Positions 15,158 through 45,871 of a stretch of 64,000 bases of DNA are shown in pieces. Position 1 is the first letter of the stretch. Each line of letters begins with the position of its first letter. Made by a program: the position numbers and the translations under genes. This DNA comes from an uncultured Verrucomicrobiae bacterium (GTDB taxonomy: Bacteria > Verrucomicrobiota > Verrucomicrobiia > Chthoniobacterales > UBA10450): the NCBI GenBank assembly GCA_963834385.1, contig CAWIBO010000005.1:96001-160000 (forward strand), read 5' to 3'. The notes below the pieces were generated by a model. It did no database searches. It was not told where the DNA came from and worked only from the letters and a program-made list of their open reading frames with translations.

Positions 15158-15276
15158 GGCAGGTGCCACTCTCCAAGCAGTCCCGATGCCACGGGGGGAA
15201 GAACGATGGGGGCGCCGGGTTCCCGGGTCCCATTTTTCGGGCTTTCCTGCCTGCGCAATTGAGGGAATTCTGCGGC

Positions 15277-18510: not shown

Positions 18511-18720
18511 TTAGGAAAGGAGGAAAGCAGGATGGGGACGGTAGCGTGAGTCGTGAATGGTGAATCGTGAATCGTGAATCGTGGAGGATCGAGCGCCGCT
18601 CACGGACCACGGTCGGTACCGCCATCCTCCATGTTCAATTCTCCATCCTCGTCTTCTCCTGGTTTCCTGGTTTCCAAATTAGAGCCCTTCTTCCTGTTTT
18701 CCTGCTTTCCTGATTCATCC
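18511..18720. repeat. intergenic mosaic of short tandem repeats
   Basis: aggaaag units, gtgaatc x5-6, ccatcct units, ttcctg units. Confidence 0.8.
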
Positions 18721-21124
18721 TGTTCCCCGAATGAGGTCGTCCACGGCGCGTTGAGTTCCCTGTTCCGAGGCCGGCGTGATGCGGATGACGACGCTTTTGC
18801 TGGCGGGGGTGTTGCTGCGAAGGGCGGTGTGGTTGAGCGGCACAAGGACGTTGGCTTCCGGGAAATAGGTCGCGGCGCAGCGCCGGGGAATCTGGAAGGG
18901 CGCGACCATGAACCCGCGCGCGACGCGTTCTTCGCCCTCGTGAATGCTGGTGAGATCGACCACCTGTCCCTGTTGCAGGCCGGCGGCGGAAACATCCTCG
19001 GGGTTCAGGAAAACCACCCGGCGTCCGCGATAAATGCCGCGGTAGCGATCGTTCAACCCATAAATCGTGGTGTTAAACTGGTCGTGACTCCGGATCGACA
19101 TCATGAGGTATTCCCCTTCGCCGAGGGAGACGGAGTCGAGCGGCGAAACAATGAAGCGGGCCTTGCCGGTGGCGGTGTGAAACCGGCGATGATCGCGCGC
19201 GGCATTGGGCAGATAGAAAACATCGCGTCGGATGCGCTCATTGAAGTTCTCGAACCCCGGCACCACCCGGGCGATGTGATCGCGGATCCGGTCGTAATTC
19301 CCCGCCAGCTCCTCCCAGTGCACCGTGCTCCGACCATCCAGGGTGGCGCGGGCCAGGCCGGCCACGATGGCGGGTTCGCTGCGCAAATTCCCCGAGGCCG
19401 GCTCGAGGTGTCCGCGGGACGGGCTGATGATGCCCATGGAATCCTCCACGGTGACGAATTGTTCGCCCGAGATCTGCCGATCAATCTCGGCCCGTCCGAG
19501 GCACGGCAGGATGAGGGCGATTTCGCCGGTGACCAGGTGTGACCGGTTCAACTTGGTCGAGACGTGCGCGGTGACCCGGCAGGATTGCAGGGCGCGGGCG
19601 GTGCCGTCGGTATCGGGCGCCGCGGAGAGAAAATTGCCGCCGAGACCGAAGAAGAAGCGGATGGCGCCGGCCTGCATCCGGCGAATGGTGTCGACGGTAT
19701 CGACCCCGTGCGCGCGCGGCGGATTGAAAGCGAACTCGGCTCCGAGCCGGTCGAGAAAAGCGTCGCTCATCTTTTCCCAGATCCCCATGGTCCGGTCGCC
19801 CTGGACGTTGGAATGTCCGCGGACGGGACAAGGCCCGGCGCCGGGGCGTCCGATGTGGCCGCCGAGAAGGAGAAAGTTCATCACCTCCTGAATGGTGGCG
19901 ACGGCGTTGCGGTGCTGGGTCAGGCCCATGGCCCAGCAACAAATGATGCGCTTCGCCTTCATCGCGATGTCGGCGGCGGCCCGGATCTGGTCGCGGGTGA
20001 GACCGCTCCCGGAGAGGATTTCGGGCCAGGGCGTGGCGCGGGCGTGCTCGAGGTATTCCGCAAACCCGGAGGTGTGTTCGCGGATGAACTCGTGGTCAAA
20101 GACCGTCCCGGGGGCTCGTTCCTCGGCTTCGATCATCTCCCTGACCATCCCGCGGAGGGCCGCGAGATCGCCGTTGATCCGGATGGGCAGCCAGAGATCG
20201 CTGATGGCGCGTGCCGCGGTTCAGCAGCATTTTCGCCGGATACTTGAGGATGTTGCGATACTCCTGCGGGTTCGGGTTGACCACCTCCATCAGGCCGGGT
20301 TCGGGGAGGGGATTGAGAGCGACGATGCGGGCTCCGTTTCGTTTTGCCTCCTCCAGCGTGCTCAGCATGCGCGGATGATTGGTGCCCGGGTTTTGTCCCA
20401 GGATGAAGATCGCGTCCGCCTGCGCGAAATCCGAGAGCTTCACGCAGCCTTTGCCGACGCCGATGCTTTCGCCGAGCGCTTCGCCGCTCGATTCGTGGCA
20501 CATGTTCGAGCAGTCCGGCAGGTTGTTGGTGCCGAATTGGCGCACGAAGAGCTGGTAAAGAAACGCGGCCTCGTTGCTGGTGCGTCCGCTGGTGTAGAAG
20601 GCCGCCGCGTCCGGCGACGGCAGCGCGTTTAGCTCCCGGCCGAGAAGGGCAAAGGCTTCATCCCACGCGATTGGCTGGTAATGCGAAGCGCCGGCCCGTT
20701 TCACCATGGGCTCCACCAGGCGCCCCTGTTGCTCGAGCCAGTAATCGCTCCGCTCCCGCAGGTCGGCCAGGCTGTGCTCGCGAAAAAATTCCGCGCCGAT
20801 GTGCCGTCGCGTCGTTTCGCTCGCGATGGCCTTGGCGCCGTTCTCGCAGAATTCAAAGATGTTGCGATCGTGATCGGGACTCGGCCAGGCGCAGCTCTGG
20901 CAATCGAAGCCCTCCTTCTTGTTCACTTTCAGCCAGGTGCCGAGGCCGCGGAGCAGGCCGGTCTCGCGGGTGGCAAAGCGCAGGCTTTCGATGATTGCCT
21001 TGAGCCCGGCCGCGACGCGATGCGGTTCCTTCTGCCGCGGGGCGGTGGTTTCCGCCGGGGTGCGACCGGAGGCAAGACCTTTCGCGTGGTCTCCCGCCCT
21101 TTCCCGGCCGTTGGCGTCCTGCAT
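18715..21124 (-). CDS. FdhF/YdeP family molybdopterin oxidoreductase; frameshift near 20210
   Basis: GFDCQSCAWP, EFCENGAKA, YTSGRTSNE, NNLPDCSNMCHE, PVRGHSNVQGDRTMGI, RSHDQFNTTIYG. Confidence 0.92.
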
Positions 21125-21290
21125 TCGGAAAGAATATCTGAAAATAGGAAGATGTGGAGGGCGGGGAGGCAGGAGCGGCGGCCGGGCGGGGTGGAAGAGG
21201 CTTGCGCTCAGGCCCGGCGGTCCGGTAACCTGAGGAAGCAATCCGGCGGCGCGAGGGCGGAGCATCAACCGCTAACCGAAAGGAGTTCGT

Positions 21291-22637
21291 ATGAATCGTA
21301 TCTTCCTGCGCAGAATATGGATGGTCGCTCTGACCCTGCTTGTCCTGGGGGTCGCCCCGGGGCGCGTGCCTGCGGACGAGACCTGTTCCTCGCCTTATCT
21401 CGCCCGCATCGATGGGCAGGAAGAGTTTGTCTACGTCTGGACGTTGGGCGTCGAGGGTCTGGGCGATGGCTCGGACAAATTGGTGACCGTCGACGTCCGG
21501 CCGGGCTCGGAGACCTACGGAAAGGTGATTCATCAGCATTCCGTGGGCGGAAGGAACGAGGCGCACCACGGCGGGTTTACCGATGATCGCCGCCAGCTCT
21601 GGCTGGCCGGGCTGGAGAGCAGCCGGATTTTCATCTACGACGTCTACGGCGACCCGGCGAAACCGAAGTTCGTGCGGAGCATTGACGATCTGGCGGCGGC
21701 GAGCGGCGGGGCGATCGGACCGCATGGTGTGTATGCGCTCCCGGGACGCGTGTTGATCCCCTGTCTCTCCAACGCGAAGGAGAAGAACGGGCGGACGGCG
21801 CTGGTGGAATACGGGAACGACGGCAACTTCATCGCGACCCATTGGCTGCCGACAAAGGGATCAGCGGAAGGTCTGGCCGGGGCGGAGCATGCCGATGGCT
21901 ACGGTTATGACGCGCGGGTCCTGCCCCGCAAAAACCTGCTCCTGACCTCCTCTTTCACCGGCTGGAACAATTACACGCGGGATTTTGGCGCCCTGACGGC
22001 GGATGCGGCAGCGATGAAACAGTTCGGGAACACCATGGTGGCGTGGAATTTTCACACACGGAAACCGGAGAAGGTTTTCCATGTCCCCGGCGCGCCCCTT
22101 GAGATTCGCTGGGCCTGGGGGCGGGACCACAATTATGCCTTCACCGCGGCGGCGCTCACCTCCAGGCTCTGGCTGATCTATGAGGACAATAAGGGAGAAT
22201 GGCAGGCGAGCGAGACGGGCACGGTGGGAAACACGGAAACGGGCGTCCTGCCGGTCGACATCAGCCTGAGCGCCGATGACAAGACGCTCTTTGTCAGTTG
22301 TTTCGCCGACGGCAAATGCCGGGTTTACGATGTCTCCGATCCGCACCGGCCGAAACAGATCCTGGAGAAGGAGATCGGGCGCCAGGTCAACATGGTCTCG
22401 CAAAGCTGGGACGGGAAACGTCTCTACTTCACCAGTTCCGTCCTGGCGAGATGGGACAAGAAAGGGAAGGACAACGACCAGTTTCTGCGCGCCTACACCT
22501 GGAACGGGAAGGATCTGACGCCGACGTTTGCGCTTGATTTCAATGGTTTGAAGCTGGGCCGGCCCCACCACATGCTCTTTGGCGCGCGCAAGCTGGGCGC
22601 ACCGCGGCTGGACGCGAACGTGGCCTCGAACCAGTGA
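21291..22637 (+). CDS. mtoX: methanethiol oxidase (SBP56 family), periplasmic type
   Basis: Signal peptide then DETCSSPY; EAHHGGFTDDRR, SSFTGWNNY, PGAPLEIRW, PVDIS, WDKKG, GRPHHM resemble Hyphomicrobium MtoX as recalled; AAGGAG RBS. Confidence 0.85.
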   Translation: MNRIFLRRIWMVALTLLVLGVAPGRVPADETCSSPYLARIDGQEEFVYVWTLGVEGLGDGSDKLVTVDVRPGSETYGKVIHQHSVGGRNEAHHGGFTDDRRQLWLAGLESSRIFIYDVYGDPAKPKFVRSIDDLAAASGGAIGPHGVYALPGRVLIPCLSNAKEKNGRTALVEYGNDGNFIATHWLPTKGSAEGLAGAEHADGYGYDARVLPRKNLLLTSSFTGWNNYTRDFGALTADAAAMKQFGNTMVAWNFHTRKPEKVFHVPGAPLEIRWAWGRDHNYAFTAAALTSRLWLIYEDNKGEWQASETGTVGNTETGVLPVDISLSADDKTLFVSCFADGKCRVYDVSDPHRPKQILEKEIGRQVNMVSQSWDGKRLYFTSSVLARWDKKGKDNDQFLRAYTWNGKDLTPTFALDFNGLKLGRPHHMLFGARKLGAPRLDANVASNQ

Positions 22638-23329
22638 TTCTTTTTCCTCTATCCGCCCGGGCGGGCACGGTGGCCATGGGCCTGGCGCTCGCGCTGGGAG
22701 TCGCCGCCCAGGCCGGCGCGGAAGATGCGGGGAGCGGACGTCACCCGGATTTCGATTACGATCCGCCCTCGCCCGGTAGCTACGAACTTCCGGTGATCAA
22801 GACGGCCGCGGACGCTCCGTTGCGGGATGTCAGCAGCGCGCCGGTGCGGCTCCGGGAACTGACGGGCGGGCATGTCACCGTCCTGAGTTTCATCTACACG
22901 CGCTGCGGCGATGCGCGCGCCTGCCCCTACGCCTCGAGCGTTTTGAATGATCTGCACCAGGTCACCCGTGGCGATCCCGCGCTGGCCCGGAGCTTGCGCC
23001 TGCTTAGCGTCAGCTTTGATCCGGCGCACGATACCCCGGAACGCATGGCGGCCTACGGCGAGGCGGTGCGCGACGCCGGGGGCGGATGTGATTGGCGCTT
23101 CCTCACGCCGCGTTCCCTGGCCGATCTCCCCGGCCTGCTCATGGCCTACAATCAGAGCGTCAACAAAGCCACAGCCTCGCAACGGGCTGCCGGGCCGCTC
23201 TTTCACACCCTGCGCGTTTACCTCATCGACCGCGAACGCCGCATCCGAAACATCTACAGCTCGGGCACGCTCGACGGGCGCCTCCTCCTCTCCGACATCC
23301 GCACTCTTCTTCTCGAAGAGGTGCGGTAA
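22634..23329 (+). CDS. SCO1/SenC copper chaperone
   Basis: FIYTRCGDARACP, SVSFDPAHDTPE, HTLRVYLID; 4-nt overlap with mtoX. Confidence 0.9.
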   Translation: MILFPLSARAGTVAMGLALALGVAAQAGAEDAGSGRHPDFDYDPPSPGSYELPVIKTAADAPLRDVSSAPVRLRELTGGHVTVLSFIYTRCGDARACPYASSVLNDLHQVTRGDPALARSLRLLSVSFDPAHDTPERMAAYGEAVRDAGGGCDWRFLTPRSLADLPGLLMAYNQSVNKATASQRAAGPLFHTLRVYLIDRERRIRNIYSSGTLDGRLLLSDIRTLLLEEVR

Positions 23330-23719: not shown

Positions 23720-24400
23720 TCAATCGCGCCGGCGCGGTTCGCCCCAGCCGCCAGCGCCGCGATAGCTGCGAGCCCCAGTCAGGGCGAGCTGCTCGAGGCC
23801 GGGATCGAACTCGCGCGTCTTGCACCAGATCTTGAGCTCGTCGCCAAACCCGGCTTGGACGCAATCGTAACAGGCGGGAACCTCGTTTGCGTAACCGCCA
23901 TAAGTGGCGACGCGGGTCCCGAGGGGCCGACCGCCCAGTTGCGCGGCGAGATGCCGCGTGTAGCGGGAACGCAACCCCGGTTCGAGCGGAATTGTCCGGT
24001 CGATCACCGGGCCGCCAAATGAATGTTCCGTGAACGGATTGAAGAGATAGAACGCGTCGTAGTGGGAAAAATCGACCTCGAGCATGTTGGCGTGGCGGAA
24101 GGTGACGTTCTCCAGGCGGAGCTGGGTGGCTGTGGCCCGTGCGATCCTAATCAACTCTGCCCGTTGCTCGATTCCGGTGAAATGGCCGGCGGTGGACGCT
24201 GCCCCGGCGAGACAGAACTTGCCCGGGCCGCAGCCCACGTCGAGGACACGGCAGCCGGGGCGATCGACCAGCTCGCGCGCCGCCGCCGTGGCCACTTCCA
24301 GGGGAGTCCAAAAAGTCTTCGAGAGGGCGCGGAGATGTTCCGGATAGAGCGCATCGAACGATCGGTCGTCGACCGGAAAGGCTGTTTCCGTCGTGGTCAC
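23720..24400 (-). CDS. class I SAM-dependent methyltransferase
   Basis: FWTP, VLDVGCGPGKFC, GIEQR, YLFNPF; GTGA overlap with the ACMSD stop. Confidence 0.85.
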   Translation of the reverse strand: MTTTETAFPVDDRSFDALYPEHLRALSKTFWTPLEVATAAARELVDRPGCRVLDVGCGPGKFCLAGAASTAGHFTGIEQRAELIRIARATATQLRLENVTFRHANMLEVDFSHYDAFYLFNPFTEHSFGGPVIDRTIPLEPGLRSRYTRHLAAQLGGRPLGTRVATYGGYANEVPACYDCVQAGFGDELKIWCKTREFDPGLEQLALTGARSYRGAGGWGEPRRRD

Positions 24401-25449
24401 GGCAGACGAAGGAATTCGCGCACGGTCCCGGCGAGCAGTTGCTCCGCCGTGCCGGGCTCCAGGTCTCTCATCGACTCAATCAGCGCCCCCGGCCGTGCTT
24501 CGCCGAGCGGGAACGGGTAATCCGAGCCGAGGGCGATGCGTTCCGCGCCGAAAAGCTCCAGGAGCATGCGGAGCGCCCCGGCGTCGTGCACCAGCGAATC
24601 GACATAAAAGTGCGCCGGGCGAGAGACGCCCCCTACCTCCCGCCGCAGGTAGGAGCGGGGATTCACCTGGTTATCGACGGCAACAAGGTCGGGCCGCACG
24701 TGGAAGGCGTGCTCGAGCCGGCCGATGGTAAAAGGGAAGCCGCCGCCGCCGTGCGCGAAGGCGACGCGCAACTTCGGGAAACGCTCGAAGACGCCGCCGA
24801 ACATCATGCTGCAGATGGCGAGCGCGGTCTCGGCCGGCATCCCGACCAGCCAGGGCAGCCAGTAATTTGGCATGCGTTCCTTCCCGACCATGTCCCACGG
24901 GTGCACGAAGATGGCGGCGTCCAGCTCCTGCGCCGCGCTCCAGAAGACATCGAGGGCGCGATCATCCAGGTTGCGGCACCCGCCCGGATGGCAATGAACA
25001 TTGGCGTCGAGGTGCGACCCGATCTGTGCGCCCCGCAGGCCGAGTTCGCGCACGGCCCGCTCCAGTTCGCGCGCCGCCCGTTCCGGGTCCTGCAGCGGCA
25101 CCGTGGCCAGGCCGGCGAATTTTTCGGGGAATGCGCCGACGATTTCCGCGAGGTGATCGTTCAGGAAGCGCGCGAGATCAGCGGCGTCGTCTGGTTTGGC
25201 CCAGTAGGAGAACATCACCGGCACCGTCGACAGGACCTGCATGGCCACACCGGTTTCCTGCATCTCTTCGCAGCGCCGTTCCGGGTCCCACGCGTTCTCG
25301 CCGATCTCCCGGAAGAACCGGTCACCGATCATCATCCGCGCGCAGCACGGTTTGTGATGCTCGAGGCGGACGAACCCGGGATAGCCATAGCGGGCGTCGA
25401 GATCCGGCCATTCCCGCGGGAGAATGTGCGTATGGAGATCGATTTTCAC
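24397..25449 (-). CDS. nbaD: 2-amino-3-carboxymuconate-6-semialdehyde decarboxylase (ACMSD)
   Basis: IDLHTHILP, QVLSTVPVMFSYWA, FVHPWDM, WLVGMPAET, AHGGG, GSDYPFPLGE. Confidence 0.93.
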   Translation of the reverse strand: MKIDLHTHILPREWPDLDARYGYPGFVRLEHHKPCCARMMIGDRFFREIGENAWDPERRCEEMQETGVAMQVLSTVPVMFSYWAKPDDAADLARFLNDHLAEIVGAFPEKFAGLATVPLQDPERAARELERAVRELGLRGAQIGSHLDANVHCHPGGCRNLDDRALDVFWSAAQELDAAIFVHPWDMVGKERMPNYWLPWLVGMPAETALAICSMMFGGVFERFPKLRVAFAHGGGGFPFTIGRLEHAFHVRPDLVAVDNQVNPRSYLRREVGGVSRPAHFYVDSLVHDAGALRMLLELFGAERIALGSDYPFPLGEARPGALIESMRDLEPGTAEQLLAGTVREFLRLP

Positions 25450-25551
25450 GGGCCGAAAGAGCTATTTAGCCCGCCCGGACGGCATCGCACCAGAAGAGAA
25501 TATTGTCGGCGCTGGACAAGGCGCCCGGGGCCGGGCAGAGTGCCGCGCCCG

Positions 25552-25632
25552 ATGATCACTCGATCCGATTCCCAGCTCCAGCTTGCGGCCGGCACGGTCC
25601 GCCCGGGAATCGCCGGATACTGGCGTCGCTAA
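25552..25632 (+). CDS. putative trp leader peptide (26 aa)
   Basis: MITRSDSQLQLAAGTVRPGIAGYWRR*; the single TGG (25621-23) lies in the first hairpin arm. Confidence 0.55.
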   Translation: MITRSDSQLQLAAGTVRPGIAGYWRR

Positions 25633-25744
25633 CGCCAGCCCGCAGAGAAGCGTCCGTCCGCCTGGTGGACGCGAACCACTGCCCAGAGACCATCCGCCGC
25701 GGCCGGCCCGGCTGCGGGAACTGCAATCCTTTGTCCCGTTTTTT
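25620..25744 (+). promoter_or_regulatory. putative transcription attenuator
   Basis: Hairpin ctggcgt/acgccag; cccgcag (25639-45) pairs with ctgcggg (25712-18); competing cggga (25715-19)/tcccg (25734-38) stem followed by T6 (25739-44). Confidence 0.55.
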
Positions 25745-25748
25745 ACCC

Positions 25749-27041
25749 ATGTCATCCATTCCATCCTTATCCGCCGCCCTCGAGCTCGACAGCGCCGATC
25801 CGCTGGCCGGGTTTCGCGAGCGCTTTTATCTCCCGCCCGGCCAGATCTACCTCGACGGTAATTCGCTGGGCCTCCTTTCCCGCGAGGCCGAGCAAACGCT
25901 CATGGAGGTCTTCGGGAAATGGAAAACCGGCGGCATCAGCGGCTGGCTCGAGGGTGAGTCGCCCTGGTTCACCATGGCCGAGACCCTGGCCGCGCGCGTC
26001 GCTCCCCTCGTCGGCGCCGCGGCGGATGAGGTGGCCCTGGCCAATTCCATGACGATCAACCTGCACCAGCTCCTGGCCACGCTCTATCGCCCGGAGGCGC
26101 CGCGGAAGAAGGTGTTGATCGACGCGCACAGTTTTCCGACTGATCGCTACGCGCTCCGCAGTCATCTGCGTCTGCGCGGGCTCGACCCGGAAGAACACAT
26201 CGTGATCGCGCCGGCGGGCCGCTCGCGGTTCCTGGACGAGGATGAACTGGTGCGCGCGCTGGCGCAGCCCGGCCTGCAAATGGCCTTGTTGCCTTCCGTG
26301 GTTTACACCACCGGGCAGTTGCTCGATCTGCCGCGGCTTTGCCGGGTGGCCCGCGAGCACGACGTCATCATCGGGCTCGATCTCTCGCACTCTGTCGGCA
26401 TCCTGCCGCACGCACTGGATGAATGGGGCGCCGATTTTGCCGGGTGGGGCCACTATAAATGGTTGAACGCCGGGCCTGGCTCTGTCGCCGGCCTTTATCT
26501 GAACCGCCGGCATTTTGCCGCCAACGGCATGGTGGACGCCGGGCTGGCCGGCTGGTGGAGCGTGCACAAGGAAAGCATGTTCAACATGTCGGACGAATTT
26601 TTTCCGGGTCTCGGGGCTTCGGCGCTGCAGATCGGGACGCCGGCCCTGTTGAGCATGGCGCCCATCGGCGGCGCCTTGCGCCCGGTGGAGGAGGCCGGGA
26701 TCGAGCGGATCCGGGCCAAATCGATTGCGCTGACGGAGTTCATCATGTCGGCGGTCGAGCAGGAGCTTGCCGGGGAGGGTTTCCGTTTGGGGACGCCCCG
26801 CGAAGCAAAACGCCGGGGCGGTCATGTCTCCGTGCGGCATGAGCAGGCGCAGGCACTTTCGCTGGCCTTGCGTGAGCGCGGCGTTGTGCCCGATTTCCGC
26901 AAGCCGGATGTCATCCGTTTCGCGCCATCGCCGCTCTACAACACCTTTGCGGAATGCTGGGAAGCGATCGCGATCCTGAAAGAGATCGCGACCAGCGGGT
27001 CCCATGAGGCCTTCAGCGCCGCGCGCAGCCTGGTCACATGA
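25749..27041 (+). CDS. kynU: kynureninase
   Basis: DPLAGFRERF, IYLDGNSLGL, FPTDRY, DLSHSVG, YKWLNAGPG (PLP Lys), PDFRKPDVIRFAPSPLYN. Confidence 0.95.
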   Translation: MSSIPSLSAALELDSADPLAGFRERFYLPPGQIYLDGNSLGLLSREAEQTLMEVFGKWKTGGISGWLEGESPWFTMAETLAARVAPLVGAAADEVALANSMTINLHQLLATLYRPEAPRKKVLIDAHSFPTDRYALRSHLRLRGLDPEEHIVIAPAGRSRFLDEDELVRALAQPGLQMALLPSVVYTTGQLLDLPRLCRVAREHDVIIGLDLSHSVGILPHALDEWGADFAGWGHYKWLNAGPGSVAGLYLNRRHFAANGMVDAGLAGWWSVHKESMFNMSDEFFPGLGASALQIGTPALLSMAPIGGALRPVEEAGIERIRAKSIALTEFIMSAVEQELAGEGFRLGTPREAKRRGGHVSVRHEQAQALSLALRERGVVPDFRKPDVIRFAPSPLYNTFAECWEAIAILKEIATSGSHEAFSAARSLVT

Positions 27042-28150
27042 GCATGGAAAGCAAACGCCGGCCGGCCTGGCTGCTCCCGACACCGGCGCGCCGTGACGAA
27101 GGCGAAGCGGCGCTGCCGGTGCGATCGCTCCTGGTGCAGTTGATGCAGGGGAAGGACCTGTCGCGGGATGAGGCCGCCCTTCTTTTCGGCGCAGCCATGG
27201 ATGAACGGGCCAGCGACGCGCAGATCGGCGCGGCCTTGGTGGCGCTGGCCGTGAAAGGCGAGACGGTGGAGGAACTCACCGGCATGGCGGAAGCCATGCG
27301 GGCGCGCGCCGTCCGCATCCGGACGCGCCATGAACGGTTCGTCGATACCGCCGGGACGGGATCGAGTCATGCCAAGACGTTCAACGTCTCGACCGCGGCC
27401 GCCTTTGTCTGTTCCGGGGCGGGTCTGCCGGTGGCCAAGCATGGGAGCCGGGCCGCCACCAGCCTCTCGGGCAGCGCGGATGTTCTCGGCGAACTTGGGG
27501 TGAATGTGCAGACCGACGCGGCCACGGCCGCACGCTGTCTCGATGAGATCGGCATCTGTTTCCTTTTTGCGCCTCTTTATCACCGGGCCACCGCCCGCGT
27601 CGCCGGGATTCGGCGCGAACTCGGCGTGCACACCACCTTTAATCTTCTCGGTCCGCTGACCAACCCGGCGGGCGCCCCCTTCCAGGTCATCGGGGTCTGG
27701 CATGAAGCGCTGCTCGAGCCGCTGGCGCACACGCTCCTCGCCCTCGGGACAAAGCGCGCCTGGGTGGTCCATGGGCGCGACGGACTGGACGAGATCACCA
27801 CGAGCGGACCGACGTTGGTCGCGGAGGTTCGGGAGGGAACGGTCCAGCGCCGCACGGTAGTTCCGGCTGATTTTGGGCTGGCGACTTCTTCTTCCCTGGC
27901 GGAACTCCGCGGAGGCACTCCCCGTGACAACGCCGGGCTGATCCGCGCCGTTCTTGCGGGTCAGGACGGAGTGCGTGTCGAAGGGGCGCGCGACCTGATC
28001 GTGGCGAACGCGGCCGCGGCGCTTTTCGTGGGCGGCCACGCGGAAACACTCCCGGCGGCTGCTGAGCTCGCACGCGAAAGCATCCGCGCGGGCGCCGCCC
28101 TCACAAAGGTCGAACAATTAATTCAATGGACCGGGGGCAAGGCGTCATGA
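27038..28150 (+). CDS. trpD: anthranilate phosphoribosyltransferase
   Basis: DTAGTG, TFNVST, VAKHGSR, SGSAD, FNLLGPLTNP, DGLDE. Confidence 0.96.
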   Translation: MSMESKRRPAWLLPTPARRDEGEAALPVRSLLVQLMQGKDLSRDEAALLFGAAMDERASDAQIGAALVALAVKGETVEELTGMAEAMRARAVRIRTRHERFVDTAGTGSSHAKTFNVSTAAAFVCSGAGLPVAKHGSRAATSLSGSADVLGELGVNVQTDAATAARCLDEIGICFLFAPLYHRATARVAGIRRELGVHTTFNLLGPLTNPAGAPFQVIGVWHEALLEPLAHTLLALGTKRAWVVHGRDGLDEITTSGPTLVAEVREGTVQRRTVVPADFGLATSSSLAELRGGTPRDNAGLIRAVLAGQDGVRVEGARDLIVANAAAALFVGGHAETLPAAAELARESIRAGAALTKVEQLIQWTGGKAS

Positions 28151-28956
28151 GCGATTTTCTCTCCAAAATCCTGGCCGCGCGGCGGGCCCGCGTGGCGAGG
28201 GATTTTTCGCCCGCGGTGCGCCCCTCCTGGCGGGAAAGGGCTGCGTTCGCCCGGGCCCGGCGGGACCATTTCTGTTTGCGCACGGCCCTGGCGGCCAGCA
28301 CGGGCCTGATCGCCGAGTTCAAACGCCGTTCGCCTTCCCGCGGTTTGATCCGGCCGGAGGCCGACCCTGCCCTCGTCGCCGCGCAATATGCCGAGGGCGG
28401 CGCCTGTGCCGTCTCCGTCCTGACCGAGCCGGATTTTTTTCAGGGCTCGCTTGCCGATCTCAGGGCGGCACGCGAAGCGGTTTCCCTGCCGGTTTTGCGC
28501 AAGGATTTTATCGTCGATGAAGTGCAGATCGACGAGGCCGCGGTGGCGGGCGCGGAGGCGGTGCTCCTGATCGTGGCCGCACTGGGCGATGGGGAGCTCG
28601 AACGTTTCCGTCGCCGGGCCGAGGATGACCTTGGCCTGGATGCGCTGGTCGAGGTGCACACGCCGGAAGAGATGCGTCGCGCCGCCGGGAGCGGAGCCAG
28701 TCTGATCGGGGTAAACAACCGGAACCTGTCGACCTTTGCCGTCTCTCTCGACACCTCGGAGGAACTGGCGCTGCTCGCGCCCGAAGGATCCGTGCTCGTG
28801 AGCGAGAGCGGGATTCATGGCCGCGCCGACGTTGAACGCCTGCGTGCTCTCGGGTATCGCGGGTTCCTCGTCGGTGAAGCGCTCATGCGCTCCGATCATC
28901 CCGCGGCGCTCCTGCGATCTCTTGGCGGCGCGGTGAATGGGAGCGTGCACCGATGA
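28147..28956 (+). CDS. trpC: indole-3-glycerol phosphate synthase
   Basis: IAEFKRRSPSRG, SVLTEPDFFQGS, LRKDFI, GVNNRNL, VSESGI, LVGEALMR. Confidence 0.96.
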   Translation: MSDFLSKILAARRARVARDFSPAVRPSWRERAAFARARRDHFCLRTALAASTGLIAEFKRRSPSRGLIRPEADPALVAAQYAEGGACAVSVLTEPDFFQGSLADLRAAREAVSLPVLRKDFIVDEVQIDEAAVAGAEAVLLIVAALGDGELERFRRRAEDDLGLDALVEVHTPEEMRRAAGSGASLIGVNNRNLSTFAVSLDTSEELALLAPEGSVLVSESGIHGRADVERLRALGYRGFLVGEALMRSDHPAALLRSLGGAVNGSVHR

Positions 28957-29615
28957 GAACGGGCAAGGTGGGAGTAAAGGTTTGTGGCGTCACCACGGTT
29001 GAAGACGCCCTCATCTGCGGGGGCGCCGGCGTGGACTGGATCGGGTTGAACTTCTCGGCCACGAGCGTCCGGCAGGTGCCGCTGGACCGGGCACGGGACA
29101 TCACCCGGGCCGTGCGGGCGAAGCATGCCGGGATGCGTTTCATCGGCCTTTTCGTGAACCAACCGGCGGAGGAGATCGAAACGATCGTGAACACTCTCAT
29201 GCTCGACGGGGTGCAGTTGCACGGGCGCGAGACGCCCTCCGAGGTCGCCGCCATCCGCGCGCCGTGGGTGATCAAGGCGTTGCCTGTCGCCCCCGGCTTC
29301 AACCCGGAGTCTGTCCGGGCCTACCCTTGCGATGCGATCCTGCTCGACGCCTGGAGCCCGACCGCTGCCGGCGGCACGGGTGCGAGTTTCCCGTGGGAGA
29401 TCGCGGCCGCCGTTCGTCCCCTCGTCCGATGTTTGCTCCTGGCGGGCGGGCTCCACGACGGCAACGTTGCGCGCGCCATTGCCGCCGCGCGCCCCGACCT
29501 GGTCGATGTCTGCAGTGGCGTGGAATCAGCGCCGGGGCGCAAGGACGGCGAGAAGGTGCGCCGTTTTGTCGAGGAGACGCGCGCCGCGCTGCAACCGGAG
29601 GGAGTCGCGTCATGA
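28953..29615 (+). CDS. trpF: phosphoribosylanthranilate isomerase
   Basis: [37 protein letters not shown]. Confidence 0.95.
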
Positions 29616-30829
29616 CAAAATTTCGTTCCGAGCCGGATGCGGCCGGCTTTTGGGGACCGTTCGGTGGTCGTTTTGTGGCGGAGACGCTGATGGCGCCATT
29701 GGAGGAACTGACAAAGGCGTTTCGCGAAGCGCAGGCGGATGCCGGGTTTCTGCGAGAACTCGATGGATTGCGGCGCGAATACACGGGGCGCCCGACCCCC
29801 CTGGGATTTGCCGCGCGCCTGACGGAGCACGCCGGAGGGGCGCGCATTTATCTCAAGCGGGAGGATCTGCTGCACACCGGGGCGCACAAGATCAACAACG
29901 CGCTCGGGCAGGGCCTGCTCGCGCGACGCATGGGAAAACGCCGGATTATCGCCGAGACCGGGGCGGGCCAGCATGGCGTGGCCACGGCGACCGTTTGTTC
30001 GCTGCTCGGTCTCGAGTGCGTCATTTACATGGGAGAAGAGGATGCGCGGCGCCAGGAACCGAATCTCCATCGCATGCGCCTCCTCGGGGCCGAGGTGCGC
30101 CTGGTTTCGCAGGGATCGCGCACGCTCAAGGATGCCATCAATGAGGCGTTGCGCGACTGGGTCACGCACGCCCGCGAGACTTACTATCTTTTGGGGAGCG
30201 CGCTCGGTCCGCATCCGTATCCGCTGATGGTGCGGGAGTTCCAGAAGGTGATCGGGCAGGAGACGCGGGCGCAGTTCCGGGCCCGCGTTCGGCGCAATCC
30301 GGATGCGCTCGTTGCCTGCGTCGGCGGCGGCTCCAACGCGATCGGATTCTTCCACGCTTTTCTCTCCGATACCGGCGTCCGCCTGCTCGGCGTCGAGGCC
30401 GGTGGAAAGGGGAGCGGGCTTGGAGAACATGCGGCCCGTTTCCGCAAGCGGGGCGGGGGACGCCCCGGCGTTTTGCACGGCACCCACAGTTACGTCCTGC
30501 AGGACAAGGCCGGGCAGATTGCGAGCACGCATTCGATCTCCGCCGGGCTCGATTATCCGGCGATCGGCCCGGAGCACGCCTTCCTGCGCGACCGGAAGCG
30601 CGTCGAGTATGTCGCCGTGGGTGACCGCGCCGCTCTTCAGGCCTTGGAACTTCTTGCCCGGCTGGAAGGAATCATTCCCGCGCTCGAATCGGCCCATGCG
30701 GTCGCGCAGGCTCTCCTGCTCGCGCCCACCATGTCGCGGCGCCAGGCCATCGTGGTCAATCTCTCCGGCCGGGGCGACAAGGATCTCGGCGCCCTCTCTG
30801 CGCCGCCGGTCAGGACGGGCCGGTTATGA
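29612..30829 (+). CDS. trpB: tryptophan synthase beta chain
   Basis: [52 protein letters not shown]. Confidence 0.98.
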
Positions 30830-31627
30830 GCGTTTTGCGTGACAGCTTTGCCGCCGTGCGCGCTTCCGGACGTCACGGGGTCATTCCGTTCCTGGTCGCA
30901 GGCGACCCCGACCTCGCCACCACCGGCAGGCTGGTGCGGGAACTGAGCGCGTTGCAGCCCGTCGCGATCGAGATCGGTGTTCCCTTCAGTGACCCATCGG
31001 CCGACGGCCCGGTGATCCAGCGCGCTTCCGGCCGGGCGCTGCGTCGCGGCACCACCCTGGCGAACGTGCTCGAGCATTTGAAAAAGACGCGAACAGCCGC
31101 GCGGGCTCCCCTGGTTCTGTTCACCTATTACAATCCGTTGTTGCAGCTTGGTCTGGCCAACTTCGCCGGGAAAGCTGCGCGCGCGGGCGTGGCCGGTGTC
31201 CTGGTGGTCGACCTTCCGGCCGAGGCGGCCGGCGCCCTGCGGGGCCATCTTTCCCGGAAAGGCCTCGACCTTATCCTCCTGGTCGCGCCGACCACCTCGG
31301 CGGATCGGCTTCGACAGATTGCGCGGACCGCTTCCGGTTTTATCTACGCCGTGGCTCGCACGGGGGTGACCGGTAACACCCGCGGCCACTCCGACGAATC
31401 CGCGGAACTGGTAGAGCGTCTTCGTGCTCTGACGTCTCTCCCTGTGGCGGTCGGCTTCGGGATCAGGACCCGGGCCCGGGTTGGGCAGGTCTGCCGTTAC
31501 GCCGACGCCGCGGTGGTCGGCTCCGCCCTCGTGGAAACGATTGAGAAAGCCTCGGCCGGTCCCCAAAAGGCCCGACGGCGGTGACGTCGTCGCGCAGGCG
31601 ATGCGGTATGCGCGGACGCTCTTCTAA
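30826..31627 (+). CDS. trpA: tryptophan synthase alpha chain; probable frameshift near 31565 (annotated frame stops at 31584)
   Basis: [43 protein letters not shown]; alternative-frame tail [14 protein letters not shown] ends at 31627. Confidence 0.95.
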
Positions 31628-32205
31628 TCGCGGAACGGCTTCACCGGCTCCGGTTTCGGCACTTTGTGTCCGCAGTTTTTGCAGGTGCGCCGGGCGTCGT
31701 CGTTCCAGAAATCGAGCATGGCCTTGCTGAACGCCTGGACGATGTCGGCACAATCGAAATCGATGTCTTCCACCAGCGCCTCGCATTTTTCGCAGTAAAA
31801 GATGACGTGCTCGTGCTCGCCGGCCGGTCGGCGGCGCTCCACCACCAGCCCGAGCGTGTCGGGCGGGCGCACCGGCGCGTGCGGGACATTCGGTGGAATG
31901 AAAAAGGTTTCACCCTCGCGCACGAGATGATCGACGATGTGATCGCCCTCGCGGATGCGCACCTTGATATCGCCTTTCAGCTGGTGGAAAAACTCCTCGG
32001 AATCGACCTGGTGAAAATCGTTCCGGGCATTTGGTCCCTTGATGATCATCACGAAAAAATCGCGGCCATCGTAGAGATACTGATTGCTCACCGGCGGCTT
32101 GAAGTTGTCCCGGTTCTTCTCCACCCAGCCCATCAGGTCGATGGGCGCCTGCACGGAGGAACCGGTTTCCGAAGGGGAGGCGGGAGCGGCGACGGCGTTG
32201 GCCAT
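31624..32205 (-). CDS. nbaC: 3-hydroxyanthranilate 3,4-dioxygenase
   Basis: KPPVSN, GPNARNDFH, EEFFHQLKG, PPNVPHAP, VVERRR, rubredoxin-like YCEKC and TCKNC. Confidence 0.93.
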   Translation of the reverse strand: MANAVAAPASPSETGSSVQAPIDLMGWVEKNRDNFKPPVSNQYLYDGRDFFVMIIKGPNARNDFHQVDSEEFFHQLKGDIKVRIREGDHIVDHLVREGETFFIPPNVPHAPVRPPDTLGLVVERRRPAGEHEHVIFYCEKCEALVEDIDFDCADIVQAFSKAMLDFWNDDARRTCKNCGHKVPKPEPVKPFRD

Positions 32206-32747: not shown

Positions 32748-33549
32748 CTAGGCCAAGTCGCGCAGCGGTCGCCCGGACCGGCCCCGGAGCACCGCCATGA
32801 TCTCGGCCAGCACGCTGATCGCGATCTCGGCCGGCGCGTCGGCCCCGAGGTCGAGCCCAAGCGGCGCATACACCCGCCCGAGTTGCTCCGCGGTCGCGCC
32901 GTCGGCCCGCAGCCGGTCAAAGACCATCCGCACTTTGCGCCGGCTTCCGATCATCCCCAGATACCCAAGGCCGGAAAGCGGCAGCGCGGCCGCCAGGGCT
33001 TCCCGATCGATCTCGTGATTGCGGGAGACCAGCACCAGCGCCTCGGTTTCTCCCCAACTGCGCGCGCGAATGAACTCCGGCGCGCTCAGCTTGGTCTGCC
33101 GGAGCGCGCCCGCCGGGAAACCGTCGAGCTGGTCAGGCCGGTCTTCGGTCACGGTGACGGAAAATCCGGCCTGGAGGGCGAGCCGGGCGATGGCGCGGGC
33201 GCAATGCCCGCCGCCGACGAGATGGATGGTTTCGCCGGCCACCTGCGGTTCGATCAGGAGTGTGACCTCGCCGCCGCAGATGGCGCCGAAAGATTCGGGG
33301 TCGCCCTCGTGCAGCGGATACGTCCGCAGCGCGGGTTCTCCGCTGGGCAAGGCGCGCACGCGCTTCTTCGATCGCCAGCGACTCGAGTTTGCCGCCGCCG
33401 ATGGTGCCGCTGCTCCGGCCGTCGGCGTAGACGATCATCTTGGCCCCGGCGGCGCGCGGGACCGAGCCGGTGCAGGCGGCCACGGTCACAAGCGCGCAGG
33501 GTTGCCGGGCGCGTCGGGCCGCCAGCAGTTCCTCGAGCAGATCAGTCAT
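32748..33549 (-). CDS. xdhC: XdhC/CoxI family xanthine dehydrogenase maturation factor; frameshift near 33355
   Basis: GSVPRAAGAKM, GTIGGGKLE, then ICGGEV, VGGGHC, YLGMIGSRRK, PLGLDLGA..PAEIAIS. Confidence 0.9.
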
Positions 33550-34387
33550 GGCGGACAACGCTCACCTCGATTTGTCCGTGCGGTTCGTCGATCGGGACGA
33601 AGACATCGTTTGGGTTGTCGAGACCGAACGGAGCCAGATTGATGAGCAGGCAATGCTTGTTCGGCATGGCCAGGTCGAGCCGCTCAATCTCGGCGCAGGC
33701 GGCCAGCGCGGCTTCGCCCATCTGGAAAAGCGTGGTTTGCGCAGAGGGACTGTAGTTTTGCGCAAAGACGGTCAGCATCGCCTCGAGAATGGCGCGGTTC
33801 GCCGTGGCATGGCTCTGCGGGGTCCGCGCAAAATACCACGTGGCGCTGAACGACGTCCCAAGGATGCGGTCAGCCGTCTCCGGCAGGGTGGTGAATTCGT
33901 CTCTCGGATAATTCTCGAAACCGGAGCCGGTGCTCTTGAGCAGGACGAGATCGCGAATGCCGGAGGCGACCGTGGCCGCTCCCTGGCGGCAGACGACGCG
34001 GGTGAAGGGGCGCGCCTCGTTCCCGGCGAGAAAGGAATGGTCGTGCGGTTTTCCCGCCACCACCATGCGCTCCCAGCGACGCTCGCTGATCTCGATCTGC
34101 GCCTCCTGCACCTGCGGATAACGCGTCACGAAATGGTCGCCCAGGACGACCGCGAACTTCTCGAGCTCGTTGCCGAGATGCTGGCGGGCCATGACGTTGA
34201 CCGTGTTCTTGATCGTGTCGGTCGCGACCACTTTCGTGTTGTCGCCCGCGGTGTAGGAACTCTCGAAATCGCCCCGGAGCAGGGCCATGACGCTGATATC
34301 CTTGAGGGTATGAAGAGGGCCGTCCCGCAGGACCTTGAGGACGCGGACCCGGCCTTTCCCGTAACGGTGATCGATCACCTTAGCCAT
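33542..34387 (-). CDS. pucL: uricase (factor-independent urate hydroxylase)
   Basis: YGKGRV, VVATDTIKNTV, LKSTGSGF, FTTLPE, SPSAQ, MPNKH, PHGQI. Confidence 0.96.
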   Translation of the reverse strand: MAKVIDHRYGKGRVRVLKVLRDGPLHTLKDISVMALLRGDFESSYTAGDNTKVVATDTIKNTVNVMARQHLGNELEKFAVVLGDHFVTRYPQVQEAQIEISERRWERMVVAGKPHDHSFLAGNEARPFTRVVCRQGAATVASGIRDLVLLKSTGSGFENYPRDEFTTLPETADRILGTSFSATWYFARTPQSHATANRAILEAMLTVFAQNYSPSAQTTLFQMGEAALAACAEIERLDLAMPNKHCLLINLAPFGLDNPNDVFVPIDEPHGQIEVSVVRHD

Positions 34388-34424
34388 TGCCGCCCAGAAA
34401 TAATTCGTTTAAGCCGGCAAGGCG

Positions 34425-34919
34425 ATGCCAAACCTCGAGGAAATCAACGCGATGGACCGGGCCGGGTTTACCCGGCACCTGGGACCGCTCTTTGAGCATT
34501 CGCCCTGGGTGGCGGAACGGACCTGGCCGGAACGCCCTTTTCCCGGGGAGAAAGAGCTGCACGCCGCCCTTTGCCGGACGGTGCGGGAGGCGGACGCCGC
34601 CGAACAGCTCGCGCTGATCGCGGCCCACCCGGACCTGGTGACAAAAGCCGTGCTCACCCGCGAATCGCAGGGCGAACAGGCCAGCGCCGGGCTCGGCTCG
34701 CTCACGGAAGCGGAGGCGCAGGCCTTCCGGGAATACAACGCCGCCTACCGCGCGCGTTTCGGGTTTCCCTTCATCATCTGCGCCCGGCTCAATAAAAAAG
34801 AGGCGATCCTGGAGGCGTTCCCCCGGCGCCTGGAGAATTCGCGCGAGAAAGAGATCGAAACCGCCCTCGAAGAAATATACAAGATTGCGGAGTTGCGCCT
34901 GCGCGACCTGATCGGATGA
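34425..34919 (+). CDS. uraD: OHCU decarboxylase
   Basis: [38 protein letters not shown]. Confidence 0.95.
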
Positions 34920-35242
34920 GCATGCTTTCCACCCACGTCCTTGATACGGCCAAAGGCCGGCCCGCCGCCGGCATGAAGATCGAGCTGCGCTCGCTTGACC
35001 GGGACGAACTGTTGAAAACGGTGAGCACGAACGCCGACGGCCGGACCGACGCCCCGCTGCTCGCGGCCGATGAGATGAAAGCGGGCCGCTACGAGCTGCT
35101 TTTCCACGTGGGCGATTATTTCGGCGAACGGAAGTTTCTTGATGTCGTGCCGGTGCGTTTCACGATTTCCGACGCCGGCGCGAAGTATCATGTGCCGCTG
35201 CTTGTCTCTCCCTGGAGCTACAGCACGTATCGGGGAAGCTGA
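34916..35242 (+). CDS. uraH: 5-hydroxyisourate hydrolase
   Basis: LSTHVLD, YHVPLL, C-terminal YRGS. Confidence 0.96.
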
Positions 35243-35244
35243 AG

Positions 35245-35585
35245 AGGTTTAACCACAGAGACGCAGAGGGCGCAGAGGGGGAGCTTTGGGGGAAAGTTGG
35301 GAGACGGCGGGTGTTTGCTGGAAGAGGACAGGATTTACAGGATGGACAGGATTTAAAGGGGTCTTTACGTGGTTTTCTTGCAGGCACAGCCCGGGCATAC
35401 GATTCACGATTCACCATTCACGACTCACGCCCCTTTCCCTCCCCCGGTAGGGCGAGACTCCGTCGAGCCTGGGAGTAGGTTTAACCACAGAGACGCAGAG
35501 GGCGCAGAGGAGGAGCTTTGGGGGAAACTTGGGAGACGGCGCGTGTTTATTGGAAGAGGACAGGATTAACAGGATGGACAGGATT
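35245..35585. repeat. 109-bp direct repeat pair flanking a heptamer array and a GTAG-type REP
   Basis: 35245-35353 vs 35477-35585, 6 mismatches by eye; gattcac-type x4 at 35401; gtagggcgagactccgtcgagcc at 35447. Confidence 0.9.
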
Positions 35586-35718
35586 GCAGGACGCAGGCGT
35601 TCACGACCCTCGCAAAGATCCGGATGGCGCGACGACGGCAGTTTGTGCGATACCTTTGCCCCAATGCTTCACCTCTTCTCTGCGACCTCCGCGACCTCTG
35701 CGTGAGGCCACTCCGGAC

Positions 35719-36729
35719 ATGACCGAGAGAGACCAGACACCGCCCGGCCTCGTTGATCTCGCCGCCGCCCGCGTGGGCGGGCTCGCCCTCGTGGCCAACG
35801 ACGAATTTTTCGCCGAGAAAGAAAACCTGCTCAAGCCGGGCCGCGGCATCTTCATCCCCGACAAATACACCGATCACGGCAAATGGATGGATGGCTGGGA
35901 AAGCCGGCGCCGGCGCACGCCCGGTCACGACTGGTGCGTGGTCCAGCTCGGGATGCGCGGGATCATTCGCCAGGTCGACATCGACACCAACCATTTCCTG
36001 GGGAACCATCCGCCCTTTGCCTCTCTCGAAGCGCTCGACCTGCGCGAGAAGATCGACCGCGCGGCGGTGGAAAAGCTTCCCTGGAGCCCGTTGCTCGAGA
36101 AATCGCCGCTCAACCCCGGCTCACAGAACCTGTGCAACGTCGCGAACGACCAGCCTTGGACGCATGTGAAGCTGAACATCTTTCCGGATGGCGGCGTGGC
36201 CCGCCTTCGCGTTTACGGAGTGGTGGTGCCCGACTGGAGCCAGTTCAAGCCGGGCGAAGCGATTGACCTGGCGGCGATCGAGAACGGCGGCGTCCCGCTC
36301 GCCTGCAGCGACATGTTCTTTTCCTCGATGCACAACCTGATCATGCCCGGTCGCTCGGAAAACATGGGCGACGGCTGGGAAACAAAACGCCGGCGCGGGC
36401 CGGGACACGACTGGCTTATCCTGAAGCTCGGCCGGCCGGGCACAATCGAGAAAATCGAAGTCGACACCAACCATTTCAAGGGGAACTACCCCGACACCTG
36501 CTCGATTGAAGGCTGCGCCGCACCGGAGGCCACCGTCGAGAGTCTTCAGAGCGACGCGGTCAAGTGGCGCGAGATCCTGCCAAAAACAAAACTCCAGGCC
36601 GACACGCGCCACTACTTCGAACGCGAGTTGTCTCCACTGCCGGATTGTTCCCATCTCCGGCTCAACATTTTCCCCGACGGCGGCGTCAGCCGTCTGCGCG
36701 TCTGGGGCCGATTGCCAGCGCCCGCATGA
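35719..36729 (+). CDS. alc: allantoicase
   Basis: Internally duplicated DGWESRRRR/DGWETKRRR, DTNHF.GN, IFPDGGV.RLRV. Confidence 0.95.
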   Translation: MTERDQTPPGLVDLAAARVGGLALVANDEFFAEKENLLKPGRGIFIPDKYTDHGKWMDGWESRRRRTPGHDWCVVQLGMRGIIRQVDIDTNHFLGNHPPFASLEALDLREKIDRAAVEKLPWSPLLEKSPLNPGSQNLCNVANDQPWTHVKLNIFPDGGVARLRVYGVVVPDWSQFKPGEAIDLAAIENGGVPLACSDMFFSSMHNLIMPGRSENMGDGWETKRRRGPGHDWLILKLGRPGTIEKIEVDTNHFKGNYPDTCSIEGCAAPEATVESLQSDAVKWREILPKTKLQADTRHYFERELSPLPDCSHLRLNIFPDGGVSRLRVWGRLPAPA

Positions 36730-38023: not shown

Positions 38024-38026
38024 TCG

Positions 38027-39384: not shown

Positions 39385-39408
39385 GACGGCGCGCGTGATG
39401 ATCCGGAG

Positions 39409-43279: not shown

Positions 43280-43287
43280 ACCTCCCG

Positions 43288-43334
43288 GGTAGGGTGGGCG
43301 TCCCGCCCGCCGGTCCGGGCGTCTCGCCCGGACG
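43288..43334. repeat. GTAG-type REP-like palindrome pair
   Basis: gtagggtgggcgtcccgcccgcc followed by gtccgggcgtctcgcccggac hairpin just after the xdh stop. Confidence 0.65.
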
Positions 43335-45867: not shown

Positions 45868-45871
45868 CCCG

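Follow-up and report, generated by a model that had tools for sequence, protein, structure and literature searches.

Attenuation by a leader peptide of the trpL type is a classical mode of control for tryptophan (trp) operons such as trpEDCBA of Escherichia coli. In addition, a eukaryote-like kynurenine pathway that reaches quinolinate in five steps is said to have been described in bacteria by Kurnasov et al. in 2003. The described system closest to the locus treated here is the chlamydial operon trpR-trpDCFBA-kynU-prsA (work of 2002 and Wood et al. 2004, via PMC3937554, PMC5897657). According to the excerpted text of a 2014 review, kynU was known in no other trp operon (PMC3937554), and a review seen in excerpt names only Chlamydia psittaci for the replacement by kynureninase (PMC5897657). 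No other case of a kynureninase in a trp operon was found in the papers searched by full text. Here we describe a kynU-trpD-trpC-trpF-trpB-trpA operon in a 64,000-nucleotide stretch of DNA (the window; contig CAWIBO010000005.1 of assembly GCA_963834385.1, G000:C5:96001-160000) from a soil bacterium whose genome (G000; 5 contigs, 2.91 Mb) has a completeness of 89.6%. The first-pass annotation of the window, made from its letters, had taken the host for a probable verrucomicrobium, and it is indeed a metagenome-assembled genome (MAG) of the Chthoniobacterales (Verrucomicrobiota). We consider it probable that the operon serves tryptophan synthesis fed by kynurenine, with kynureninase in place of anthranilate synthase.

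A kynureninase gene at the head of a trp operon

The six genes run in one direction over positions 25749-31584 (+) of the window, and profile matches recovered all of them as the first-pass annotation had described them, with kynU as the first gene of the trp operon (Table 1). The products match their family models over the full length with intact frames, although TrpF falls under the NCBIfam cut-offs (NF002298, 183.8 bits against a cut-off of 215), and the kynU start at 25749 is consistent with the N termini of five relatives. All five junctions are ATGA start/stop overlaps and were read exactly where they had been placed (27038, 28147, 28953, 29612 and 30826). The span first given, 25749 to 31627, holds at its start but not at its end, as the trpA stop falls at 31584, 43 bases earlier. 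It had also been noted that neither a trpR nor a phosphoribosyl pyrophosphate (PRPP) synthase gene is adjacent, and the neighbours are in fact the genes for ACMSD and HAAO. Each of trpD, trpC, trpF, trpB and trpA is single-copy in the genome. The idea that these are decaying relics was rejected for the window on the strength of six intact frames and full-length family matches. The operon kynureninase, type B hereafter, is relatively rich in tryptophan (9 of 430 residues, against 2 of 405 in TrpB and 0 in TrpA).

Table 1. The operon, its upstream region and the kynurenine-pathway genes of the window (window positions)
Feature	Position	Strand	Product and evidence
Candidate trp leader ORF	25552-25632	+	26 codons plus stop, MITRSDSQLQLAAGTVRPGIAGYWRR; single Trp codon three codons before the stop
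Leader-to-kynU spacer	25633-25748	+	T-run at 25739-25744 directly before the start codon
kynU	25749-27041	+	Type B kynureninase, 430 aa; TIGR01814 320.4 bits, cut-off 246.4
trpD	27038-28150	+	Anthranilate phosphoribosyltransferase, class I; TIGR01245 386.5 bits, passes equivalog cut-off
trpC	28147-28956	+	Indole-3-glycerol-phosphate synthase; PF00218 259.9 bits; NF001377 277.5 bits, cut-off 260
trpF	28953-29615	+	Phosphoribosylanthranilate isomerase; PF00697 (PRAI) 129.7 bits, full length
trpB	29612-30829	+	Tryptophan synthase beta; TIGR00263 587.4 bits, passes equivalog cut-off
trpA	30826-31584	+	Tryptophan synthase alpha; TIGR00262 241 bits, passes equivalog cut-off
ACMSD	24397-25449	-	2-amino-3-carboxymuconate-6-semialdehyde decarboxylase; 404 bits to human ACMSD chains; PF04909
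HAAO	31624-32205	-	3-hydroxyanthranilate 3,4-dioxygenase; TIGR03037 169.9 bits; PF06052
KMO	15133-16587	+	Kynurenine 3-monooxygenase; 374 bits to KMO 6lkd; 325 bits to other top KMO chains
Arylformamidase	45229-45867	+	KynB-like kynurenine formamidase; TIGR03035 212 bits, just below cut-off 223

The lack of trpE and trpG, first noted for the window, extends to the rest of the genome. A profile search with PF00425, the family of chorismate-binding enzymes (TrpE, PabB, MenF and the like), gave 0 matches in G000 while matching 14 of 14 control genomes; the trpG/pabA model TIGR00566 found nothing above its cut-off in G000, the weak matches being other amidotransferases only; and tblastn of G000 with TrpE from a member of the same family gave no match. 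Since chorismate synthase and two DAHP synthase (DAHPS) genes are present, the loss is specific to anthranilate synthase and does not concern the whole aromatic pathway.

The type B kynureninase covers positions 2-399 of the 400 in TIGR01814 and has a KYNU_C domain of 119 bits. Its Lys237, invariant in the type-B alignment, corresponds to the lysine within the SYKYLN segment of human KYNU and the TYKYLN segment of the Pseudomonas fluorescens enzyme (motif YK(Y/W)LN), and we take it to be the lysine that binds pyridoxal phosphate. Type B scores 211 bits to P. fluorescens 1QZ9 and 209 bits to human KYNU, and alignments to PDB chains place Trp66 and Gly296-Thr297 at the sites of His102 and Ser332-Asn333 in human KYNU; in related type-B loci covering the sites, the Trp is kept in 50/50 and the Gly-Thr in 47/47. 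The best 120 homologues of the operon kynU are soil or Chthoniobacterales proteins throughout, with identities of 72-80%, and include neither an outgroup nor a chlamydial row. A second kynU elsewhere in the genome, for which the first-pass annotation had proposed a search, does exist; it lies at G000:C5:45919-47145, about 76 kb before the operon. This type A kynureninase has His and Ser-Asn at the human His102 and Ser332-Asn333 sites and scores 402 bits to human KYNU. As excerpted, PMC11329768 describes W102/T333 as strictly conserved in bacterial kynureninases that prefer kynurenine, and H102/N333 as the hallmark of those preferring 3-hydroxykynurenine. The motifs therefore suggest that type B prefers kynurenine over 3-hydroxykynurenine, and the obvious assignment is that type A fits the predicted 3-hydroxy branch of the genome's own pathway and that type B is an extra enzyme. 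One cell naturally holds two kynureninases whose specificity motifs are opposite.

Linkage, gene loss and origin among relatives

A pattern scan of 185,579 species genomes yielded 51 type-B loci, all from Chthoniobacterales/Verrucomicrobiota MAGs, whose gene layouts were mapped by tblastn. Adjacency of kynU and trp genes is conserved among these related loci: 28 of the 51 loci, or 28 of the 41 informative ones, are trp-linked, in four layouts. The layout of the window, kynU-trpD and onwards, occurs at 18 loci (15 with all of trpDCFBA and 3 cut by a contig end), kynU-trpCFBA at 4, kynU-trpFBA at 3 and trp(F)BA-kynU at 3, while 13 loci have no trp neighbour despite enough flank and 10 are uninformative owing to contig ends. 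Thus, kynU is first and leader-proximal in 25 of 28 linked loci, conserved at 72-80% identity, and neither trpE nor trpG was found beside kynU at any of the 51 loci by tblastn. In six loci (L044, L045, L063, L064, L066 and L070) trp genes, kynU or the ACMSD gene are broken into two tblastn pieces or are inflated or contain stops, with an inflated kynU match span in L064 and L070 and an in-frame TGA in one trpD; errors of assembly, which we took to be the cause, would explain them, as would an operon decaying in some of the lineages.

Whole-genome searches covered 49 of the 51 type-B loci (L068 and L069 were left out). PF00425 has no match in 21 of the 28 linked genomes; among genomes with an unlinked or an uninformative locus it is missing from 6 of 13 and 4 of 8, respectively. 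The linked genomes without it include an assembly with a 4.02-Mb contig titled 'chromosome: 1' (L070/G086). By comparison, PF00425 is present in 18 of 24 other genomes sampled from the family, that is, missing from 6 of 24, and in 16/16 genomes of the same order outside the family. The six family genomes without it are G001, G003, G004, G013, G018 and G020 (96, 96, 97, 84, 73 and 100% complete). When unpublished genomes (G002, G007, G014, G054, G057, G072, G078 and G089) are set aside, PF00425 is missing from 19 of 26 linked and 6 of 11 unlinked genomes and present in 15 of 21 family genomes. The related genomes are non-independent and completeness is unreported for those reached through their loci, so that these counts describe a pattern and are not a test. 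The trpD gene, which falls into two classes by score in the family, is kept in 48 of 49 type-B genomes, including 31/31 without PF00425. Tryptophan synthesis is remodelled in several ways within this one family: G003 (96% complete) and G020 (100%) have no chorismate-binding enzyme, no trpD and no type B (trpC to trpA were not searched), and look from these gene contents like full tryptophan auxotrophs; G001 lacks PF00425 and type B and keeps trpD.

The likely source of the operon lies within the family. In G009, G012 and G023, DAHP synthase-trpG-trpE-trpD-trpC-trpF-trpB-trpA form one operon, and none of these three genomes has a full-length type B. In a TrpD tree of 39 rows from the family and the same order (quick IQ-TREE run, support by the Shimodaira-Hasegawa-like approximate likelihood ratio test (SH-aLRT) only, midpoint root for drawing), the three trpE-linked and 16 kynU-linked TrpDs form one clade (SH-aLRT 100). 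This class I clade is set off by a long branch (1.46) from the other TrpDs of the family and from those of the same order, and inside it the kynU-linked TrpDs, that of the window included, are monophyletic (SH-aLRT 98). Moreover, an ACMSD-HAAO pair follows the DAHPS-trpG-trpE operon of G012 at a distance of about 6 kb, and the kynU operons of the window and of G019 are located between the ACMSD and HAAO genes. The simplest reading of this tree and these layouts is that DAHPS-trpG-trpE would have been replaced once, by a kynureninase from neighbouring genes of tryptophan catabolism. As to the order of events, the loss of the remaining anthranilate synthase in most descendants would have come after the replacement.

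A short ORF upstream of kynU, present in only one copy in the genome, is a candidate leader; it ends in YWRR-stop, with the stop 116 nucleotides upstream of kynU. Homologous leader ORFs of 23-31 codons (mostly 26-28), which end in WRR-stop (WRS-stop in L073) 102-134 nucleotides before kynU, occur in 15 of the 23 evaluable loci where kynU leads the trp genes and also in two loci whose linkage is unknown, and were found upstream of kynU in 0/13 unlinked loci and 0/3 loci with kynU after trpA. Among 18 leader ORFs, 15 end in YWR, 13 start with MD(R/C), and additional Trp codons, one or two in number, occur in several. Their alignment has TGGCG.CG.T.A as its invariant core, and the wobble position of the first Arg codon varies (CGT/CGC/CGG). 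Relatives also conserve a block resembling GACGCATCCGT and the T-run in the spacer. Similar leaders precede DAHPS-trpG-trpE-trpDCFBA, ending in SRYWRRLN-stop in G012 and, with two Trp codons, in ALAWWR-stop in G009; the sequence upstream of the G023 operon is too short to assess. We take the leader to be the trpL-like leader of the family operon, inherited by the kynU operon, and if this is so, kynU would be expressed as a tryptophan-biosynthetic gene. A tandem TGG TGG at about 25680 was considered as a leader and rejected, because its frame has no start codon and the tandem is not conserved.

Several analyses addressed the leader region itself. An Rfam scan of 25400-25800 with E up to 10 gave just a chance match to a frameshift site on the opposite strand, and a promoter scan of the leader region gave 0 promoter-like sites. 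The single-sequence fold of the region has z = -1.27, and RNAalifold on 18 leader regions gave 5 pairs with no useful covariation. Minimum free energy folds hinted that the Trp-codon segment pairs with a GGCG(C/A)C block, but duplex energies beat mononucleotide shuffles at p<0.05 in only 4 of 18 sequences (far) and 2 of 18 (near) and were no better than shuffles in most.

The proposed route, the genome's own kynurenine pathway and the alternatives

In the route proposed here, type B would cleave L-kynurenine to anthranilate and alanine, and TrpD, TrpC, TrpF and TrpBA would convert anthranilate to tryptophan. The kynU gene would have taken the place of DAHPS-trpG-trpE as the leading part of a trp operon that is specific to the family and covers the whole pathway, directly behind the leader ORF of that operon, and the whole unit, kynU included, would be switched on through the leader when charged tRNA-Trp is scarce. 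Since the genome has no anthranilate synthase, net synthesis should need a precursor from outside, which could be kynurenine, N-formylkynurenine, anthranilate or indole. Equally, since the cell's own TDO and formamidase make kynurenine, the operon may recapture it before it would pass to KMO, type A, HAAO and ACMSD. The first-pass annotation had proposed that tryptophan is made from scavenged kynurenine: the exchange of anthranilate synthase for kynureninase is supported by the gene loss, the motif, the leader and the conserved adjacency, but scavenging is only one possible source, as a genome with its own TDO and KynB-like formamidase could also make kynurenine internally. That this widespread family of soil Verrucomicrobia has abandoned the synthesis of anthranilate from chorismate and lives on imported kynurenine or N-formylkynurenine, for example from dead biomass or oxidised tryptophan, with induction through the trpL-like leader when tryptophan runs short, is conceivable, and we put it forward tentatively. 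In two soil DNA sequencing runs merely 6% of the words were present.

The genome's own kynurenine pathway is complete and strikingly animal-like (kynureninase 402 and ACMSD 404 bits to the human proteins, KMO 374 bits to a solved KMO). The TDO gene lies on contig C2 (G000:C2:990519-991481), and NadA is also encoded. The ACMSD gene is divergent from the leader and kynU and is paired with the HAAO gene in relatives; the HAAO gene is convergent with trpA and is part of the genome's own kynurenine pathway, not of the operon. KMO is the predicted competing branch at kynurenine. HAAO is found in 23 of 24 family genomes but in just 1 of the 16 genomes from elsewhere in the order, TDO in 44 of 49 type-B genomes, and type A is near-universal in the family while type B is patchy. 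Two kinds of TDO exist in the family (one such gene is at L013:2602-3387): a long one that matches the Pfam model end to end with 250-274 bits, and a short one of about 260-290 residues that matches in two pieces with about 130 bits. The short kind is the one beside type-B kynU (L023, L054, L066, L034 and L056). A steady neighbour of the ACMSD, HAAO and kynU genes is the alpha subunit of a Rieske-type ring-hydroxylating oxygenase, found by tblastn at 15 of 51 loci (for example L010:11982-13163, L011:11604-12950, L013:877-2019 and L018:55-1191); in G000 its best tblastn match, on contig C3, is merely 28% identical. Our guess is that this oxygenase acts on anthranilate or a kynurenine-related compound.

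Other genes of the window include a purine-breakdown cluster at 32748-47344, with an XdhC-like factor, urate oxidase, OHCU decarboxylase, hydroxyisourate hydrolase, allantoicase, allantoinase, adenine deaminase and a fused xanthine dehydrogenase of 1218 residues that has its XdhA and XdhB parts in one frame. The KynB-like formamidase gene comes directly after this cluster, and in G005 a type-B kynU stands directly beside adenine deaminase and xanthine dehydrogenase genes. Upstream of the operon, an FdhF/YdeP-family molybdopterin oxidoreductase at 18715-21268 (-) is split into overlapping ORFs (20096-21268 and 18715-20148) that match model positions 2-248 and 280-743, in that order; a frameshift, a recoded codon or faulty assembly could be responsible for the split. 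At 21291-23329 (+) lies a gene for MtoX methanethiol oxidase (679.5 bits, cut-off 650), followed with a 4-base overlap by a gene for a SCO1/SenC-like copper chaperone.

Several observations weigh against kynurenine-fed tryptophan synthesis as the role of the operon. With its own TDO and KynB-like formamidase, the cell can make kynurenine from its own tryptophan, and an internal loop from tryptophan to kynurenine and back yields zero net gain; the analysis identified no transporter for kynurenine. Where type B is not linked to trp genes, its neighbours are TDO, HAAO and ACMSD (TDO-kynU in L023, L054 and L066), a setting that looks catabolic. A chorismate-binding enzyme is present in 7 of 28 linked genomes, so that the route is optional there, two of the seven being doubtful: G058 (= G019) has an 83-residue C-terminal piece of trpE at a contig end, and the match in G070 scores 113 bits against about 300 bits typical for TrpE. 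The completeness of the window genome is 89.6%, and the related genomes are for the most part fragmented MAGs of unreported completeness. The putative co-transcription of kynU with the trp genes is drawn from one kind of evidence, the ATGA overlaps. As for the leader, 8 of 23 evaluable linked loci have none, that of the window has just one Trp codon, no canonical terminator was found in the leader region, where terminator-like sites are no commoner than in shuffles, and no leader structure beyond chance, terminator/antiterminator or other, was found. Finally, the excerpted text of PMC11329768 states that activity on kynurenine does not biochemically require the W/T motif, which makes the motif a correlate.

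Three alternatives have to be weighed against this background. One may argue that type B serves tryptophan catabolism or NAD synthesis, that its adjacency to trp genes is a matter of neighbourhood only and that the trp genes use outside anthranilate or indole or are relics. The HAAO and ACMSD genes that flank the operon in the window, the complete kynurenine pathway of the family and the relatives without trp linkage, in which type B is next to HAAO, ACMSD, TDO and the Rieske oxygenase, all speak for this explanation. We nevertheless regard it as unlikely. A His/Asn-type kynureninase is already available for the 3-hydroxy branch, and the motif of type B is of the kynurenine type. Joint use is favoured by the ATGA coupling to trpD and by four independent layouts with trp linkage. 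A Trp-codon leader, of the sort found ahead of trpE operons in the family, stands before kynU in trp-linked loci only. The trp genes are intact, with trpD, the one surveyed, kept in every type-B genome without PF00425.

The products of trpDCFBA alone can use anthranilate or indole, and the operon might therefore serve mainly to salvage these compounds, with kynU as a minor extra input and kynurenine as no important natural source of tryptophan. G001, which keeps trpD without PF00425 and type B, fits this explanation, as does the lack of an identified kynurenine transporter, yet it seems improbable, as kynU is first and leader-proximal in 25 of 28 linked loci and is itself well conserved, and two of the three sampled family genomes without trpE and type B (G003 and G020) also lack trpD. 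Alternatively, anthranilate synthase may be present but unassembled, in which case the apparent replacement would stem from the incompleteness of the MAGs, and kynU would be no more than an accessory first gene. The incompleteness of G000, the trpE piece of G019/G058 cut by a contig end and the PF00425 matches in 7 of 28 linked genomes are in keeping with this, but profile hidden Markov model (HMM) and tblastn searches both gave 0 matches in G000, none was found in G004 (97% complete) nor in the assembly with the 4.02-Mb 'chromosome 1' contig, and absence from 21 of 28 linked genomes compares with 6 of 24 in the family sample. We therefore consider an artefact very improbable. Kynurenine-fed tryptophan synthesis, with kynureninase standing in for anthranilate synthase, remains our preferred reading.

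The exchange of anthranilate synthase for kynureninase has so far been an oddity of three chlamydial species that live on the kynurenine of their hosts. On the preferred reading, the same solution is now found in at least 28 species-level soil Chthoniobacterales genomes, with its own candidate regulatory leader and, in most of them, without anthranilate synthase. It offers a simple case of the in-place replacement of a pathway's first step, suggests that compounds of the kynurenine type can serve as a resource away from animal hosts, and would call for a different reading of tryptophan auxotrophy in this group of Chthoniobacterales. For 'Candidatus Udaeobacter', a member of the order, a 2016 preprint, as excerpted, reports aromatic amino-acid pathways to be absent, and a 2020 paper, likewise as excerpted, reports a tryptophan pathway with 1 of 12 enzymes missing. 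If the group does live on imported kynurenine, then kynurenine would be traded as a nutrient among soil organisms, and calling tryptophan auxotrophy from genomes would give wrong or incomplete results for the group.

Comparison with known systems

The candidate leader resembles those of trpL attenuation in being a short ORF before the first gene with Trp codons near its end, two or three in some relatives and a tandem WW in G009. It differs in that the window leader has one Trp codon, that no terminator/antiterminator or Rfam match was found in its region and that the first gene encodes a kynureninase. With the eukaryote-like kynurenine pathway of bacteria, G000 shares TDO, formamidase, KMO, type A and HAAO. 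That pathway accounts for type A but not for the operon copy; NadA is present, and ACMSD points to catabolism too. The kynA/kynB/kynU branch of Pseudomonas, represented by 1QZ9, is similar in its Trp/Thr motif, in the presence of TDO and formamidase in the genome and in anthranilate as the predicted product. In Pseudomonas, however, anthranilate leads to catechol or quinolone signals (PMC5897657, as excerpted) and anthranilate synthase is retained, whereas here kynU is translationally coupled to trpD.

The chlamydial operon remains the closest counterpart, as it too is a trp operon without anthranilate synthase, with a kynureninase predicted to feed TrpD, in a genome without trpE/G. As the first-pass annotation had pointed out, the gene order differs: kynU is second to last in the chlamydial operon but first here. 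The chlamydial operon has trpR and a PRPP synthase gene, neither of which is present here, and the present operon is preceded by a leader ORF with a Trp codon. Moreover, the chlamydial host is an obligate intracellular pathogen that uses host kynurenine, whereas the present operon belongs to soil Chthoniobacterales, in the window to a 2.9-Mb genome with its own TDO, KMO, HAAO and ACMSD. According to the TrpD tree, which was built without chlamydial rows, the trp genes here derive from a local DAHPS-trpGEDCFBA operon, and the kynU operon apparently arose separately from the chlamydial route.

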